A DNA stretch of 64,000 bases from positions 17,708 through 81,707 of the forward strand of contig CAVVMQ010000007.1 of NCBI GenBank assembly GCA_963749295.1, given 5' to 3'. The position numbers and the translations under genes are program-made. Under the pieces are notes generated by a model, which saw only the letters and a program-made list of their open reading frames with translations, had not been told where the DNA came from and searched no databases. Each line of letters starts with the position of its first letter. Within the stretch, counting starts at the first letter, position 1. Source of the stretch: an uncultured Acidobacteriaceae bacterium (GTDB lineage Bacteria; Acidobacteriota; Terriglobia; Terriglobales; Acidobacteriaceae). This document shows, piece by piece, positions 48,996 through 54,291 of the stretch.

Positions 48996-49072
48996 GGCCC
49001 CGTAGCTCAGTTGGATAGAGCAGCGGTTTCCTAAACCGTTGGTCGGCGGTTCGACTCCGCCCGGGGCCCCCA
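48996..49072 (+). tRNA. tRNA-Arg (anticodon CCU), CCA encoded
   Basis: Manual cloverleaf: acceptor GGCCCCG/CGGGGCC, D arm GCTC-AGTTGGATA-GAGC, anticodon arm GCGGT-TTCCTAA-ACCGT, T arm GGCGG-TTCGACT-CCGCC, discriminator C, then CCA. Confidence 0.9.
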
Positions 49073-49322
49073 CGATCTCAGTCACATGCGTGGTTACTAT
49101 CGATTGGCTTGCTCTCGATTTCAAGTGGCTGCACCGATTGTTGTGCTATAATGATTCTCAACGCTACTGCCACGGTTTGCTCGTGACGCGGTGATCCTGT
49201 TGGATCAAGATTCATCTCCGCCTTCCTGCCCGCCGTTTATTCAGCGTAAATCAAAACATAAGAGCGGCATAGGAACTCACTACACGTGTACACATCAGGC
49301 CCCTCCAGAAAGACAATTACGA

Positions 49323-50519
49323 ATGACAAGCTTTACAGATCTACCGTTATCTTCTGCTTTGCAGCAGAGGCTGGCGACGGCTCAATTCATTATCCCTACG
49401 CCCATTCAGGCGCAGGCTATTCCTTACGCCCTTGAGGGCAAGGACGTGCTGGCTACGGCGCAGACCGGAACCGGCAAGACGCTGGCGTTTCTGATTCCGA
49501 TCATCGAAATGCTGCAGCGCGAACCTTCGCAGAAAGTCCGCGTGCTGGTTTTACTGCCCACTCGCGAGCTGGCGATTCAGGTCAACGAAGAATACGAAAA
49601 ACTGCGCGGCCGGGAACTATCGAAGGCGGCGCTGGTAATCGGCGGTGTCTCCGAGAAGGCGCAGATTCAGGCGGTGCGCGGCGGGTCAAGCCTGGTGGTT
49701 GCAACTCCGGGCCGCTTGCAGGATTTCATCAGCCGCAAACTGATTGACCTGCGCGAAGTCAAAATCCTGGTGCTTGACGAAGCCGACCGGATGCTCGACA
49801 TGGGCTTTCTGCCCGCGATCCGGCGGATTCTGGCGATCCTGCCGCAACGCCGGCAGACGCTGTGCTTCTCGGCCACCATGGAGCAATCGGTCGCCGGCCT
49901 GGTGAACGATTCCATGCGCGATCCCGTGCGCGTGGCGGTTGGTTCGGTGCTGAAGCCGGTGGAGAGCGTCCGCCTGCAAGCTTACGAAGTGCGTCCCGCG
50001 GAGAAGCCCGATGTGCTGCGGCAGTTGCTCTATGCCGAAAAAGGACAGACGCTGATCTTTGCCCGCACCAAGCGCGGCACCGAACGACTGGCCCAAGAAT
50101 TGGTCCGCGAAGGCTTCTCCGCGGCGATGATTCACGGCGACCGCTCGCAGTCGCAACGCAACGGGGCACTCAGTGGATTTCAGCAGGGACGCTTCCAAAT
50201 ACTGGTCGCAACCGACGTGGCCGCGCGTGGTTTGCACATTGATGACGTGGCGCATGTGATCAACTACGACCTGCCCAAGATGGCGGAGGATTTCATCCAT
50301 CGCGTGGGACGCACGGGGCGCGCTGGGTCGGAAGGGCTGGCTACAAGTTTAGTGGCGGGCGGCGAAGTCATCGAATTGCGGCACATCGAGCGCACGCTAA
50401 AGTTGAAAATCGAACGCAAGCAGGTAGATTGGGCCAATGCGGAGCGGTCCGAGCATGTTGTCCAAAACACGCTGGCCAGCCGAACGCTAACGAAATTACC
50501 GGGCGAAGTATTCGCCTAA
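49323..50519 (+). CDS. DEAD-box ATP-dependent RNA helicase (RhlE-like)
   Basis: Q motif, AQTGTGKT, VLDEADRMLD, SAT, HRVGRTGRAG. The ATG at 49323 is preferred to the upstream ORF-track start. Confidence 0.9.
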   Translation: MTSFTDLPLSSALQQRLATAQFIIPTPIQAQAIPYALEGKDVLATAQTGTGKTLAFLIPIIEMLQREPSQKVRVLVLLPTRELAIQVNEEYEKLRGRELSKAALVIGGVSEKAQIQAVRGGSSLVVATPGRLQDFISRKLIDLREVKILVLDEADRMLDMGFLPAIRRILAILPQRRQTLCFSATMEQSVAGLVNDSMRDPVRVAVGSVLKPVESVRLQAYEVRPAEKPDVLRQLLYAEKGQTLIFARTKRGTERLAQELVREGFSAAMIHGDRSQSQRNGALSGFQQGRFQILVATDVAARGLHIDDVAHVINYDLPKMAEDFIHRVGRTGRAGSEGLATSLVAGGEVIELRHIERTLKLKIERKQVDWANAERSEHVVQNTLASRTLTKLPGEVFA

Positions 50520-50546
50520 CGCCGCAGTGGATTCGTTAAAGCTGAA

Positions 50547-50571
50547 GGGGCGCGTCATAGCGACGCGCCCC
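50547..50571. terminator. GC-rich hairpin between convergent genes (likely bidirectional terminator)
   Basis: ggggcgcgtc-atagc-gacgcgcccc, a perfect 10-bp stem, followed by aacatttt on the plus strand. Confidence 0.6.
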
Positions 50572-50617
50572 AACATTTTGGATCGATTTAATTGTTATAT
50601 CGATCTAGGTTGAAGGT

Positions 50618-50872
50618 TTACGGTTCGGTCTTCTCCGGCTCGCGCTCCCGCGGAATACTGGAAATATCGGCATCGTCCCCCAGTTGAAACAGCGCCGCTT
50701 GCTCGGCGGCGTGCCTTTGCAATTCATCCAAATCCAGTTCGTTCGAATCGCCCGGAGTCCCTAAGGGCTCGTCTTTGCGCTGGATACGGCGTTCGGCCTT
50801 GTCGCGCTGCTTCTGCTGGCGCGTGTGTTCCTTCTGGCGCTTGGTAAAACTTGATCGACCTCGTCCTGGCAT
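50618..50872 (-). CDS. small charged hypothetical protein (basic N-terminal half, acidic C-terminal half)
   Basis: The ATG at 50872 gives MPGRGRSSFTKRQKEHTRQQKQRDKAERR...; 84 aa. The upstream part of ORF 50618-51013 is not needed. Confidence 0.5.
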   Translation of the reverse strand: MPGRGRSSFTKRQKEHTRQQKQRDKAERRIQRKDEPLGTPGDSNELDLDELQRHAAEQAALFQLGDDADISSIPREREPEKTEP

Positions 50873-51031
50873 AGCAATCTCCAATCGTTTCTTGCTGATC
50901 GAACGTCCGCTCAGCGACGCAAAGCCGCTGTTGATTTTGCGGAGTTCGCGGCGCCCTTCGGCGCGCTTCGCTTGCTCAGGGCAGGCTAAGAACTGGAAGC
51001 CGCGCCCTTTCAAAACCCGTCGCAGGTCGAG

Positions 51032-51394
51032 CTACCAGCGGGGTTCCCGGGGCTGGCGTGCATGCCCCTGATAATCGTCGCGGCTGCCGCCGCCTCCGCC
51101 ACCGAAGCGCTTTCCACCTCCACCCGCGCCGCCGCCGCGCGGCGCATCGGTCTTCGGCTTCGCCTCGTTGATCTTCAGGGCGCGGCCGCCGAGTTCGGTC
51201 CCATTCAATGCGGCTACGGCCTTATCGGCTTCCGCCGCATTGGTCATTTCGACGAAGCCGAAGCCGCGGGCGCGCCCGGTCTCGCGGTCCGTGACAATGC
51301 TGACTTTCTCGACTGCGCCATGCGCCTCAAACAAGCCGCGCAGCTCTGGTTCGGTGGTGCTGTGAGGTAAGTTGCCGACGTAAAGATTCTTCAT
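51032..51394 (-). CDS. RRM-type RNA-binding protein with a Gly-rich tail
   Basis: RNP2 LYVGNL, RNP1 RGFGFVEM, and a GGGAGGGGKRFGGGGGG tail. The ATG overlaps the upstream stop (ATGA). Confidence 0.9.
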   Translation of the reverse strand: MKNLYVGNLPHSTTEPELRGLFEAHGAVEKVSIVTDRETGRARGFGFVEMTNAAEADKAVAALNGTELGGRALKINEAKPKTDAPRGGGAGGGGKRFGGGGGGSRDDYQGHARQPREPRW

Positions 51395-52095
51395 AGGAGT
51401 TCTTCTCTTTCTGTTTCGACTGCGCCTGTTTCCCCGGCAGCTGTTTCCGCGGCAGCTGTTTCTGCCGCAGCTATTGCTGCTGAGAATGTTTCTGCCGCGA
51501 CTGCTTCGGTTGCAAATAAGGGTTGAGGGGTGATGGGCGCCGGTGCGGAGTGCTGCTCGATGGCTTCGGCCCAGCGGGAAGGTCTCGGCGCTTCCCGAAG
51601 CGCGCGCGAACGAGCCTCGCTGACCGCGCGGACGCTGGAAATTTTCCGGCAAGCTTCCATGATTCCCCAGCGCTGCGAGGTAGCCGCCGCAGCCTGAGCG
51701 AGCAGGGCTGCGATCAACTCCTTGTGCAGGGCATCTGCGTCCGGCTCCGGCGGCGCTTCGTCAGAATGCGGCGCGGCCGCAAGGTACTCGGGACCGCCCA
51801 CGAAGAAAGCAATTCTCTGCGGAGGAGTGGCGCTGCGAAGGTCCGTGCAGAACTGATCGCGGCTGGCAGTTTCGCCGGCTGCGCTGATGAGCACCAGATT
51901 GTACAAATCCGCCCTCCACCAACAGCGCGCCTCGAGAACATCGGCCGCGCAATCCACGTCGATGCCAAGTCTTCGCATCACGTCGGCCCGCAGATCGCGT
52001 TTCGTCTGCGAGGTATCGAGCAGCAATACGCGCTTCCTTTTAGCCCCAATGCCATGCGGATTCGGCTCCGGCAATGCGACGACAGGTGTGGTCAT
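51391..52095 (-). CDS. REC-like (probable pseudo-receiver) protein with an Ala/Glu-rich repeat tail
   Basis: N-terminal KRVLLLDTS...YNLVLIS receiver-like fold, with Ser where the acceptor Asp is expected. The tail AAETFSAAIAAAETAAAETAAGETGAVETE is encoded by 3 x 15-nt repeats (51436-51480). Confidence 0.6.
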   Translation of the reverse strand: MTTPVVALPEPNPHGIGAKRKRVLLLDTSQTKRDLRADVMRRLGIDVDCAADVLEARCWWRADLYNLVLISAAGETASRDQFCTDLRSATPPQRIAFFVGGPEYLAAAPHSDEAPPEPDADALHKELIAALLAQAAAATSQRWGIMEACRKISSVRAVSEARSRALREAPRPSRWAEAIEQHSAPAPITPQPLFATEAVAAETFSAAIAAAETAAAETAAGETGAVETEREELL

Positions 52096-52247
52096 GCTAC
52101 CTTCTCTTTGGCGTTGCCTTGCGCTGCCGGGGCCACCAGGTTTTTCTCAGCCAGCGCCTTCAACATTTTCTGATTGCTCTGGCGGCGGCTGATCTTCTGC
52201 CTGCGCCGCCGGTTAAATCTGGCTTTGTCGCCGTTGACTCCGGACAT
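52092..52247 (-). CDS. 51-aa basic micro-protein (below the ORF-track size cutoff)
   Basis: Manual translation: MSGVNGDKARFNRRRRQKISRRQSNQKMLKALAEKNLVAPAAQGNAKEKVA. SD AGGAG lies 7 nt upstream of the ATG at 52247. Its TGA overlaps the next ATG (gcATGAcc). Confidence 0.5.
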   Translation of the reverse strand: MSGVNGDKARFNRRRRQKISRRQSNQKMLKALAEKNLVAPAAQGNAKEKVA

Positions 52248-52613
52248 GTTTATCTCCTGCCTTGTGGGCTGATTATCGTAGACGCCTGGCTGTCGCGATG
52301 TTCTTGTTGCGCCCAGGCGTCGCAGTTACGAGCATCCCGCGTTCCCGCTACGAGCGAGCCGCAGCATCGGCCAGACCGCATGGCCGTTCCTTGAAGCCGA
52401 TGCTTTGGGATTGCAGGGTCTGGCTTTCGCAGGTTCTCAGATTCGACACGTCGTTCGCCTTTCAGGGAATTTCTCAATCGCGAAGGCGCAACGTGCTGTC
52501 AGGGTGTCTTCGAGGTCAAGGTCTTCAGTATACGCTGCATCCGCCGATATTGCTCGGGTTTTGCCTGACTGCAAAGCACCGAAGGTCAGGCAATCCACGA
52601 ACCCGGATGAAAC

Positions 52614-53303
52614 TCAGGGCTGCGAAGGGCTGACGCTGCCGGGCTTGGAACCTTTGCACAGCAGCAGGCAGAGCGCCACCGCTCCTCCGGCTGCGCCGCC
52701 AATCTCGAGCCACTTGGTATTCAGCCCGTTGCCTGCCCCTGCGGGCCGCGACTCCGCTCCGCAAGTCGCCGCCACGTCGCGGGTTGCCTGCTCTCCTTCA
52801 TGCACCACGGCGGATTGAGCAGAGTTGCTCGCCGGCATTGCTTTTCGCCATGCACCTATTTGCGTGATTTTCACATCGTCCTTTTGAACTGCAACTTTCA
52901 CTGTGCCGCTGAGGTTGGTCGTGTCGTACTGCGTCCGCTCGTTCCCAGCGGGCTCGACCTTGATGCAGTTCACGCGCACGCTCATCGCCGTGGAAGTGCC
53001 CACGGATACGCCTCCGTGCTCCAGGCTCAGCGAGTTGCCCCGGAACTTCACCACCGACTCCGGCTGAATAAGAACCGACGACCCTTCCGCATCGAGGTTG
53101 GCGACGGAGCCGGGTTTGGTCTCCAGCAAATCGCCAGGAAAGATGGCTGTGGCGTCCGCCACTTCAGCGCCGTTCACCCATACTCCACCCTTGCTATGCA
53201 CAACTGCAGCGCTGGTGGTGGTCGCGTCCCCTGCCAGCAGCGACAGCGGGCACAACACAACCATCACCCAGCAAATAGAATTGTATGAAACAGGCACGCG
53301 CAT
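52614..53303 (-). CDS. FecR-domain-like secreted protein with a C-terminal anchor (paralog B)
   Basis: Same architecture as 43158-43829: GGVWVNG...AIFPGDLLETKPGSVANLDAEGSSVLIQPESVVKF, VRVNC, HEGEQATRD, and a hydrophobic segment plus CKGSKPGSVSPSQP tail. Confidence 0.65.
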   Translation of the reverse strand: MRVPVSYNSICWVMVVLCPLSLLAGDATTTSAAVVHSKGGVWVNGAEVADATAIFPGDLLETKPGSVANLDAEGSSVLIQPESVVKFRGNSLSLEHGGVSVGTSTAMSVRVNCIKVEPAGNERTQYDTTNLSGTVKVAVQKDDVKITQIGAWRKAMPASNSAQSAVVHEGEQATRDVAATCGAESRPAGAGNGLNTKWLEIGGAAGGAVALCLLLCKGSKPGSVSPSQP

Positions 53304-53483
53304 AACCGAACCGAATTTCCACAGCAGACTTCAACCTGATCGTAGTGGCAGGGAGTGAGGTCGTCTATTAGCTCTCTGGATGCCGGTTGAGCAACAATAT
53401 TTGCTCAGGTTGCCGGGCTGGGCTGCGCCCTGCTTGCGAACTCCGGTATGCTGGGCGGACACGATTTGATGAAGCTCCAAACG

Positions 53484-53511
53484 TGGGTTGCAGAAGATGG
53501 GTTGCAGAAAA
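53484..53511. repeat. tandem duplication tgggttgcagaa(ga/aa) x2 spanning the ABC ATPase start codon
   Basis: Period 14. Copy 1 begins (g)TGGGTTGCAGAA and copy 2 begins (a)TGGGTTGCAGAA, so a GTG/ATG start context is duplicated. Confidence 0.9.
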
Positions 53512-54291
53512 GAACCAAATCTCGCCGGGGGTCCGGTGATCGAATTTTGCGACGTGGTCTACGCGCTGCCCGGCGGTCAGCAGCTGCTTTCTGGGCTGAA
53601 TCTGCAGGTGCAACGCGGCGAGACTTTGGTCTTGCTGGGGCGCAGTGGTTCGGGAAAAACTACCACGCTGAAACTGATCAACCGGCTGTTAGCTCCCTCG
53701 GGCGGGGAAGTGCGCGTGAATGGCGCGCCCACTGCGGGGGGCGACGTCATTCGCTTGCGTCGCAGCATCGGGTATGTCATCCAGGATGTAGGCTTGTTCC
53801 CGCATTACAACGTGGAACGAAATATTGGCCTTGTTCCGCGCATCGAAGGCTGGCCCCCCGAACGGATCCATCGCCGCGTCGAGGAATTGTTGCAGATGGT
53901 TGGGCTGGAGGCGAACTTGGCTTCGCGCTATCCCCACCAGCTTTCGGGCGGGCAGCGGCAACGCGTGGGAGTGGCTCGGGCGCTGGCCGCCGATCCCGCG
54001 ATCCTGCTGATGGATGAGCCCTTCGGCGCGCTCGACGCCATCACACGCGACGAACTCCAGCGCGAGTTTCTTTCGCTTCAACAGCGGCTGGGCAAGACCG
54101 TGGTCTTCGTCACGCACGACCTGCGCGAGGCATTGCTGCTCGGTTCGCGCGTCGCTCTGATGGAAACCGGAAGGCTGGTCACGGTTCTTTCTCCAAAGGA
54201 TTTCTTGCAATCAACTGATCCGTTAGCCTCTGCCTATGTGCGGGCTTTCGGAGGCGGACTGGACTCGGCACTAAATCGAGGCGCCTCATGA
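53497..54291 (+). CDS. osmoprotectant (glycine betaine/choline-type) ABC transporter ATP-binding protein
   Basis: Walker A GRSGSGKTT, signature LSGGQRQR, Walker B LLMDEPF. ATGA overlap with the permease gene. Confidence 0.9.
   Translation: MGCRKEPNLAGGPVIEFCDVVYALPGGQQLLSGLNLQVQRGETLVLLGRSGSGKTTTLKLINRLLAPSGGEVRVNGAPTAGGDVIRLRRSIGYVIQDVGLFPHYNVERNIGLVPRIEGWPPERIHRRVEELLQMVGLEANLASRYPHQLSGGQRQRVGVARALAADPAILLMDEPFGALDAITRDELQREFLSLQQRLGKTVVFVTHDLREALLLGSRVALMETGRLVTVLSPKDFLQSTDPLASAYVRAFGGGLDSALNRGAS

Follow-up and report, generated by a model that had tools for sequence, protein, structure and literature searches.

A conserved operon in Candidatus Sulfotelmatobacter links a pseudo-receiver gene to an RRM gene by overlapping stop and start codons

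In bacteria, proteins that carry an RNA recognition motif (RRM) have only lately come to be seen as global regulators that act after transcription, for instance in Bacteroides and cyanobacteria. To our knowledge, neither a protein partner nor an upstream regulator has been described for these proteins. Bacterial RRM proteins are reported to take part in cold adaptation and to feed back on their own expression (PMC13370968); the glycine-rich Rbp1 is required for cold adaptability (PMC9333190), and Rbp3 is bound to ribosomes (PMC12232666). Here we describe an operon of Candidatus Sulfotelmatobacter, a soil acidobacterium with a 5-Mb assembly in 18 contigs (GCA_963749295.1). The operon lies in a window of 64,000 nucleotides, which is the whole stretch of DNA analysed (contig CAVVMQ010000007.1, positions 17,708 to 81,707), and consists of four consecutive genes on the minus strand that encode a basic microprotein (from an open reading frame, ORF, referred to as the micro-ORF), a protein resembling receiver domains (REC-like), an RRM protein and a further small protein, p84 (Table 1). 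The parts are of known kinds (RRM, pseudo-receiver, translational coupling); their combination, a module conserved across about a hundred species, seems to be undescribed. In the literature searched, neither the coupling of a receiver-like protein to an RRM protein nor the two small-protein families were found described.

The RRM protein has in common with cyanobacterial Rbp1 and Rbp3 and with Bacteroides RbpA, RbpB and RbpC a single RRM, the RNP1 and RNP2 motifs and a glycine-rich tail. It differs from them in that its gene is translationally coupled in an operon whose other products are a pseudo-receiver and two small basic proteins, and in that it ends with RDDYxGHxRQPREPRW, and no description of either the coupled-operon context or this C-terminal end was found in the literature searched. 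In the cyanobacterial rbpA1-rpsU cluster, too, an RRM gene stands with the gene for a small, very basic protein, there S21, and the cluster is reportedly co-transcribed. The microprotein and p84, however, are unlike S21 or any Pfam or PDB family, and the cyanobacterial cluster has no pseudo-receiver. In a cyanobacterium rpsU is strongly cold-induced (PMC6337551).

Pseudo-receivers (PsR) and aspartate-less receivers (ALR) share with the REC-like protein a receiver-derived fold without the catalytic residues (PMC12632262, PMC4395418). Whereas those domains have the (βα)5 fold, only β1-β4 and α1-α3 are predicted here, and the α4-β5-α5 output face is replaced by a loop and two long helices; in addition, the REC-like gene is genomically tied to an RRM gene, and the Pfam model Response_reg does not detect the protein of the window. 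By analogy with PsR and ALR domains, the REC-like protein is presumably regulated without aspartate phosphorylation. A 2025 review of pseudo-receivers, in which the term 'RNA' is absent, calls their activation and silencing a mystery (PMC12632262). In ANTAR regulators such as AmiR, EutV and Rv1626, which offer the closest functional analogy, a (pseudo-)receiver controls a fused RNA-binding domain (PMC3369931, PMC7496416). These regulators resemble the present locus in coupling a (pseudo-)receiver and a long helix-rich stretch to an RNA-binding output, but here the RNA-binding module is a separate RRM polypeptide rather than a fused domain. An ANTAR or AmiR-like architecture of the REC-like protein itself was rejected, as Pfam gave no match to PF03861 at E ≤ 1 and Rv1626 (1s8n) was matched over its receiver part only (E = 0.094); no ANTAR protein was among the listed top 50 Foldseek matches.

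The TGA of the micro-ORF and the ATG of the REC-like gene overlap as ATGA (gcATGAcc), as do the TGA of the REC-like gene and the ATG of the RRM gene (ctATGAag, 51391-51394). A gap of 159 nt separates the RRM gene from p84, which is preceded by its own GGAG. The coordinates, both overlaps, the AGGAG Shine-Dalgarno (SD) sequence of the micro-ORF and the hairpin beyond the operon that the original prediction had read from the DNA are all present in the sequence as claimed; the AGGAG lies at 52254-52258, 6 nt 5' of the ATG. Since a single 4-nt gene overlap is commonplace, overlaps alone are not beyond chance and the case rests on conservation. Twenty loci of the same genus, each from a different species, were compared by placing the four genes with tblastn and reading the junctions, and the overlap sequences were scored in this set (below, L-numbers denote loci and g-numbers genera). 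All 20 loci have the order micro-ORF, REC-like, RRM, p84 (with the p84 frame broken in one, L004), and in all 20 a stop/start overlap is found at both junctions: ATGA in 19 and GTGA in one between the micro-ORF and the REC-like gene, ATGA in 19 and TGATG in one between the REC-like and RRM genes. The order micro-ORF, REC-like, RRM also holds in 80 of 80 loci from named metagenome-assembled genomes (MAGs), with p84 in 79 of them; these are the 80 best loci from the species-genome collection and overlap with the 20-locus set, which comes from the same species genomes. The records of these relatives are MAGs of Candidatus Sulfotelmatobacter or Acidobacteriaceae from peat, palsa, bog and Danish soils. 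Both overlaps are present in the distant locus L199 as well, and the micro-ORF overlaps the RRM gene directly in genus g27.

The gene order that the original prediction had proposed to survey in related genomes is thus conserved, and the overlaps are not peculiar to one genome: they occur in 20 species and in a lineage that shares only 37% identity with the window in the REC-like protein. All four ORFs are under purifying selection, the ratio of nonsynonymous to synonymous substitutions (dN/dS) being 0.108 for the micro-ORF, 0.111 for the REC-like gene, 0.025 for the RRM gene and 0.082 for p84, as estimated by the Nei-Gojobori method (NG86) from nine close species in which the proportion of synonymous differences (pS) is about 0.55-0.62 and near saturation. 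Four-nucleotide overlaps support termination-reinitiation and co-production of the proteins, and the conservation of the overlaps supports a real, translationally coupled operon in which the downstream genes would depend on translation of the upstream ones.

Several lines of evidence support the view that the micro-ORF encodes a conserved protein. It has an ATG in 20 of 20 genus loci, with an AGGAG-type SD in nearly all, and its product begins with the motif MSxxNGDKxRFxRxR[KR]QKIxRRxR. The proportion of nonsynonymous differences (pN) over codons 1-27 is 0.05 against a pS of 0.51, while the C-terminal half is less conserved (pN 0.45 against pS 0.63, all species); with a dN/dS of about 0.11 overall, a micro-ORF free of purifying selection can be discounted. 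In a class sample of 401 genomes from 146 genera, the microprotein profile matched 125 genomes in 59 genera and many families, and the matches, often short open frames of about 45-60 codons, mostly begin at residue 1. The class-wide motif is MSxRNGDK[AS]RF[GHN]RxR[KR]xK[IL]xRRxRxRELRK. All 2307 database homologues are labelled 'hypothetical protein' or are unnamed, and the microprotein has no relative in Pfam (E ≤ 1), NCBIfam or the PDB.

The commonest identifiable neighbour of the micro-ORF family is an RRM gene. The micro-ORF is followed by an RRM gene and then by p84 in other genera of the same family (L147, L148, L156), and in genus g27 (L117/L145) it is coupled by ATGA straight to the RRM gene, with the order micro-ORF, RRM, p84, REC-like; in other families an RRM gene directly follows the micro-ORF (L160, L167). 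An RRM gene lies within 1.5-2.5 kb of the micro-ORF in 17 of 44 loci examined outside the genus, for which the rough chance expectation is well below 1%, as there are only two RRM genes in the 5-Mb genome. The prediction of a conserved micro-ORF therefore stands, but not its role as a private leader of the receiver gene, given its presence in 125 of the 401 genomes with an RRM gene as commonest neighbour. The older core is micro-ORF, RRM and p84, and the pseudo-receiver is an added, recurrent partner. A second conserved cluster, which a microprotein homologue opens, occurs in other families of the class (L161, L162, L164, L205, L216, L218). There the homologue is followed by a protein of about 105 residues (MYIQY[VR]GF...QDGPxxC[FY][AT]RL) that has no Pfam family and by one of about 285 residues (FYNGELFR...ARWEDxQYSFNLF); an RRM gene comes next in L162, L205, L216 and L218, and none was found within the flanks of L161 and L164.

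The REC-like protein is, according to structure prediction, a truncated pseudo-receiver comprising strands 1-4 and helices 1-3. A full-length homologue is present in 27 of 36 other species genomes of the genus and in 0 of 24 genomes of a neighbouring family. Searched alone, the 234-residue protein had no Pfam match at E ≤ 1 and its NCBIfam matches to receiver-containing models were only chance-level; REC-like sequences weakly match GlnR_1st (PF21695), a minor pseudo-receiver family. A profile of 20 orthologues gave a marginal PDB match to RR468/TrrA (E = 0.0017), and a profile that included distant relatives matched the YycF receiver (E = 2.1e-7) and RR468 (E = 2.8e-7), then CheY, NtrC1 and others. 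All PDB matches of the latter profile span its positions ~16-92, and the receiver matches in Pfam and the PDB end at profile position ~76-104. A paralogue in L104 narrowly passes Response_reg: it reaches 30.6 bits where the gathering score is 30.2, and the match covers positions 1-76 of the 111 in the profile. AlphaFold2 models from two alignments predict β1-α1-β2-α2-β3-α3-β4 with a predicted local distance difference test score (pLDDT) of ~90-93 over residues 20-100; α4-β5-α5 is absent from these predictions, so that the predicted structure falls short of a (βα)5 fold. Helices 120-139 and 145-168 (pLDDT 75-92 in the second model) are followed by a short helix and a disordered tail, and the low-pLDDT loop after β4 holds the most invariant motif of the family, F/L-V-G-x-P-x-Y-L-A-x-x-P. 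When Foldseek was run with each model, receiver domains (PhoB, CheY, Spo0F, RR468 and cytokinin-receptor receivers) made up almost the whole of the top 50; they align over ~77-90 columns with a root-mean-square deviation of 2-3 Å; none of these listed top 50 covers the whole REC-like architecture.

As originally predicted, the domain is receiver-like and lacks the acceptor Asp, and the motif YNLVLIS, which had suggested this, lies at residues 65-71. In a HMMER alignment to RR468/TrrA, S71 occupies the acceptor position. Of the five catalytic residues only the first acidic one (DD1) is kept, as D27; DD2 is replaced by T28 and the conserved T by V99, and nothing aligns with K. Orthologues and representatives at 50% identity have S, N, D, A, G, H or E at the acceptor position. 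The definitions of PMC12632262 make the protein a PsR and, in this genome, an ALR; orthologues with an acceptor Asp would count as PsR alone. The residues that are invariant or nearly so are others: L24, R33, R36, G44, W60, Y65, P91, Q93, V99, G100, P102, E147 and A148. An exhaustive search gave 677 representative clusters at E ≤ 1e-3, of which 287 remain at E ≤ 1e-10; within the class sample the family occurs in 48 genomes and 12 genera, with full-length matches in about seven genera. The C-terminal part consists of a variable Ala/Glu/Thr tail and then a conserved REELL (or REEMQ). The Ala/Glu repeat described earlier as 3 x 15 nt (51436-51480) is real, though its extent had been understated (Table 1). 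A function for the repeat as an element was rejected, as it is of low complexity, is not conserved and sits in a variable, indel-rich region whose copy number differs among the sequences of alignments A1 and A3.

The linkage between receiver-like and RRM genes is conserved and, as comparison of loci supports, recurs in independent arrangements and with REC-like paralogues, which bears out the tight coupling that the original prediction had singled out. Loci L199-L201 (soil contigs and a MAG) encode the REC-like protein of 37% identity in the order micro-ORF (69 residues, MSKINGDKSRFHRIRKQRIHQRIRNRE...), ATGA, REC-like, ATGA, RRM (ending RDDYRDHARQPREPRW) and a 73-residue p84-like protein. The genus also has paralogous REC-like genes for proteins of 125-137 residues that are 34-41% identical and have the same loop, FLVGPPTYLSP, and these stand in a cluster of REC-like, DUF2934 and RRM genes (L101, L104, L106). 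In L123 a REC-like gene directly follows an RRM gene, and in L121 about 570 nt lie between the two. In the paralogue cluster (L101 2290-2670, L104 2816-3193, L106) the 125-residue REC-like protein carries DLVLLD and FLVGPPTYLSP, the RRM protein has no glycine-rich tail, and an ABM-like ORF of 107-113 residues precedes the cluster. In a different family, a 132-residue ORF (L205 617-1012, minus strand) directly 5' of an RRM gene is a very degenerate receiver-like sequence (ILIIRES...VVFCTPLLSDGSW...VILLART; Response_reg E = 0.055), and may be a separate pairing of pseudo-receiver and RRM, as a weak case.

Among the four operon proteins, only the RRM protein has a library match, to Pfam RRM_1 (E = 1.8e-24, 85.8 bits against a cut-off of 20.7) and to NCBIfam NF058537, 'RNA-binding regulator' (Rbp_regulator; 103.1 bits against a cut-off of 100). 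Its C-terminal motif RDDY[QR]GH[AP]RQPREPRW (51032-51085, minus strand) is nearly unchanged across the genera examined, with one orthologue that differs. The sole other RRM gene of the genome (C8:224861-225211, minus strand) is 59% identical over the RRM, encodes a protein that likewise ends in RW (GGRGRW), and adjoins a gene for a TypA/BipA-like translational GTPase (C8:225626-227449). The 84-residue ORF is half basic and half acidic, as had been described: its first 35 residues include 13 K/R and the remainder 13 D/E. It follows the RRM gene in other genera also, and its N-terminal motif, SFTKRQKExxRQQKQRDKAERR, was found in 212 of the 401 class genomes and 101 of the 146 genera; most members of this motif family have 60-100 residues and most do not adjoin RRM genes. 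No relative of p84 was found in Pfam (E ≤ 1) or the PDB. Assignment of the microprotein or p84 to S21, RMF or bS22-like proteins was rejected, the likeness being compositional only: searches of Pfam, NCBIfam and the PDB at E up to 1-10 gave no match.

The intergenic region upstream of the micro-ORF is 366 nt long and contains a leader block that was seen in alignments of 20 and then 96 upstream regions: GTATA[CA]T, 7-9 nt, CTT[GA]ACCTCGAAGAC, 15-20 nt, TTGCGCCTTCGCGATTGAGA, a variable gap and [AG]AGGCG. The last element, AAGGCG in the window (52456-52461), follows box 2 and can close a hairpin on GCGCCTT. The block is near-invariant among Sulfotelmatobacter loci, which is notable given that synonymous sites in the coding regions are near saturation; it is also present in g19, g23, g25 and g27 (where the micro-ORF precedes the RRM gene) and absent from g15. 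The 5-Mb genome has a single copy of the 18-mer of box 2, and a regulon-wide motif was rejected for that reason. A simple sigma-70 scan listed no promoter on the minus strand. We read the leader as a promoter followed by a sequence-specific element that would act at the RNA or DNA level. By position, and by analogy with the reported autoregulation of Bacteroides rbp genes (PMC13370968), it is a candidate autoregulatory site. At the other end, the hairpin between the operon and a convergent DEAD-box helicase gene is probably a bidirectional terminator. The 101-nt stretch that bears it (50525-50625) folds with -32.1 kcal/mol, z = -6.1 against shuffled sequences, and it went unlisted by a simple terminator scan owing to its weak U-tract.

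The convergent helicase gene (49191-50519, plus strand) is found in 77 of 80 genus loci and not in the distant L199 operon. On the upstream side, a FecR-like gene for a secreted protein of 229 residues (52614-53303, minus strand) is syntenic in 71 of 80 genus loci. Just 5' of the helicase gene lies a tRNA gene (49000-49069, plus strand; Rfam RF00005, 53.5 bits) that is cut by the edge of the searched stretch; it was the only Rfam match within 49000-54000 at a permissive threshold, with none in the leader or operon.

Table 1. Features of the operon and its flanks (positions in the window)
Feature	Position	Strand	Description
Leader	52456-52532	-	TATACT -10-like (52527-52532); box 1 CTTGACCTCGAAGAC (52506-52520); box 2 TTGCGCCTTCGCGATTGAGA (52472-52491)
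Micro-ORF	52092-52247	-	51 aa, Arg/Lys-rich, MSGVNGDKARFNRRRRQKISRRQSNQKMLKALAEKNLVAPAAQGNAKEKVA; ATG and AGGAG SD
REC-like	51391-52095	-	234 aa; receiver core ~20-100, loop VGxPxYLAxxP, helices 120-139 and 145-168, REELL
Tandem repeat	51426-51498	-	Period 15, 4.9 copies, 77% matches (Tandem Repeats Finder); encodes AAET-type tail
RRM	51032-51394	-	120 aa, single domain; RNP2 LYVGNL, RNP1 RGFGFVEM; Gly-rich tail; C-terminal RDDYQGHARQPREPRW
p84	50618-50872	-	84 aa; basic N-terminal half (MPGRGRSSFTKRQKEHTRQQKQRDKAERR), acidic C-terminal half, conserved AEQAALF helix motif
Terminal hairpin	50547-50571		G+C-rich, 10 bp

The reading that we favour, and hold with somewhat more confidence than doubt, is that of one operon in which a phosphorylation-independent adaptor modulates an RRM RNA chaperone; the operon probably acts on RNA after transcription. 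The four genes would form one transcription unit, which probably starts from the TATACT-type promoter about 280 nt upstream and ends at the terminal hairpin. Ribosomes would load at the strong SD of the micro-ORF and pass on by termination-reinitiation at the two ATGA junctions, so that the microprotein, the pseudo-receiver and the RRM protein would be made together, with p84 translated from its own SD (GGAG). The RRM protein would be the effector, binding single-stranded RNA or acting as an RNA chaperone in the manner of bacterial Rbp proteins, which are known to bind single-stranded RNA and to have a part in cold or stress adaptation (PMC9333190, PMC12232666, PMC13370968). The 234-residue protein would be an adaptor that no longer works by Asp phosphorylation and perhaps dimerises by way of its long helices; remodelling would have affected its former active-site face and a conserved loop (R33, R36, W60, P91-x-Q93 and VGxPxYLAxxP). 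This adaptor may bind the RRM protein, or else one of the two small basic proteins, and thereby modulate RNA binding or targeting; the regulated RNA binding suggested in the original prediction is likewise an inference. The microprotein and p84 could serve as Arg/Lys-rich cofactors that bind RNA or the ribosome, with the acidic half of p84 perhaps masking its basic half, and the conserved leader would be the candidate site of autoregulation.

Several observations weigh against this reading or parts of it. REC-like genes without an RRM gene within 1.5 kb occur in some genera, including g14 and g23 (L116, L118-L120, L122, L124), and homologues of the microprotein and p84 outside family f1 are mostly unlinked to each other, so that no pairing is obligatory. 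The conserved REELL of the REC-like protein may persist only because its purine-rich codons provide the SD of the RRM gene. RNAalifold pairs box 1 of the leader with box 2, with 0 compensatory changes, and the 5' untranslated region as a whole is no better folded than shuffled sequences (z = -1.0); on these grounds the leader was rejected as a structured RNA. The DEAD-box helicase gene was likewise set aside as evidence of an RNA-metabolism island, its synteny being of genus level only and the gene being absent from L199.

Alternatively, the four genes could share an operon for the timing of expression only, for example in a stress or stationary-phase regulon, and act separately, in which case both small basic proteins would associate with the ribosome or the nucleoid and have nothing to do with the RRM protein, and the REC-like protein would regulate something else. 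The microprotein and p84 families do have a much wider distribution than the REC-like family (125 and 212 against 48 of the 401 genomes) and are often found away from RRM genes, but the linkage recurs in several gene orders, also with REC-like paralogues and distant relatives, and shared timing is no obvious cause for two overlapped junctions to persist at 37% protein identity. We regard this explanation as unlikely. It is slightly more unlikely still that the micro-ORF is chiefly a regulatory upstream ORF whose translation sets downstream expression, by opening structure or by delivering ribosomes to the ATGA junction, and whose peptide has no function. That the micro-ORF always comes first, with the only strong SD, and is overlapped by the next gene (REC-like in the genus, RRM in g27) would suit such a role, as would the poor conservation of its C-terminal half. 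The strong constraint on the first 27 codons and the spread of the N-terminal motif over 59 genera speak against it, and at many micro-ORF loci the next ORF is 30-220 nt away or the neighbours are others, which fits a functional peptide; the regulatory and peptide roles are not exclusive.

Several orthologues and relatives do possess an acceptor Asp (LVLID in L010, L012, L016, L018 and L020; DLVLLD in L104), and DD1 (D27) is mostly kept, as might be expected if the REC-like protein still served an unlinked histidine kinase as a phosphate-accepting response regulator, at least where the Asp is present, with the operon as output of a two-component pathway. This is very improbable: the protein of the window has Ser at the acceptor position and its close relatives Asn, DD2, T and K are missing family-wide, and no β5 or α5 is predicted. 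No kinase gene turned up in the conserved neighbourhood, for which no kinase-aimed query was made. The favoured reading of a phosphorylation-independent adaptor can be extended to a ribonucleoprotein regulator new to bacteria, in which a pseudo-receiver dimer would dock on the RRM protein via the RQPREPRW tail, using its active-site face and VGxPxYLAxxP loop, and two arginine-rich microproteins would add contacts to RNA or the ribosome. Such a complex, autoregulated through the leader, might retune translation or mRNA stability under cold or stress in peat Acidobacteriota and would be a split, RRM-based counterpart of ANTAR regulators. We put this fuller scheme forward as a speculation that is rather doubtful as a whole.

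The class Terriglobia includes abundant bacteria of soil and peat that are hard to study by genetics. The locus gives genomic context to two unannotated small-protein families, which occur in 59 and 101 of the 146 genera sampled. Through it, a bacterial RRM protein acquires a defined partner and a pseudo-receiver a defined setting, the mechanism being still a proposal. By tying a pseudo-receiver family to an RRM protein through conserved coupling, it provides a concrete and testable pairing.

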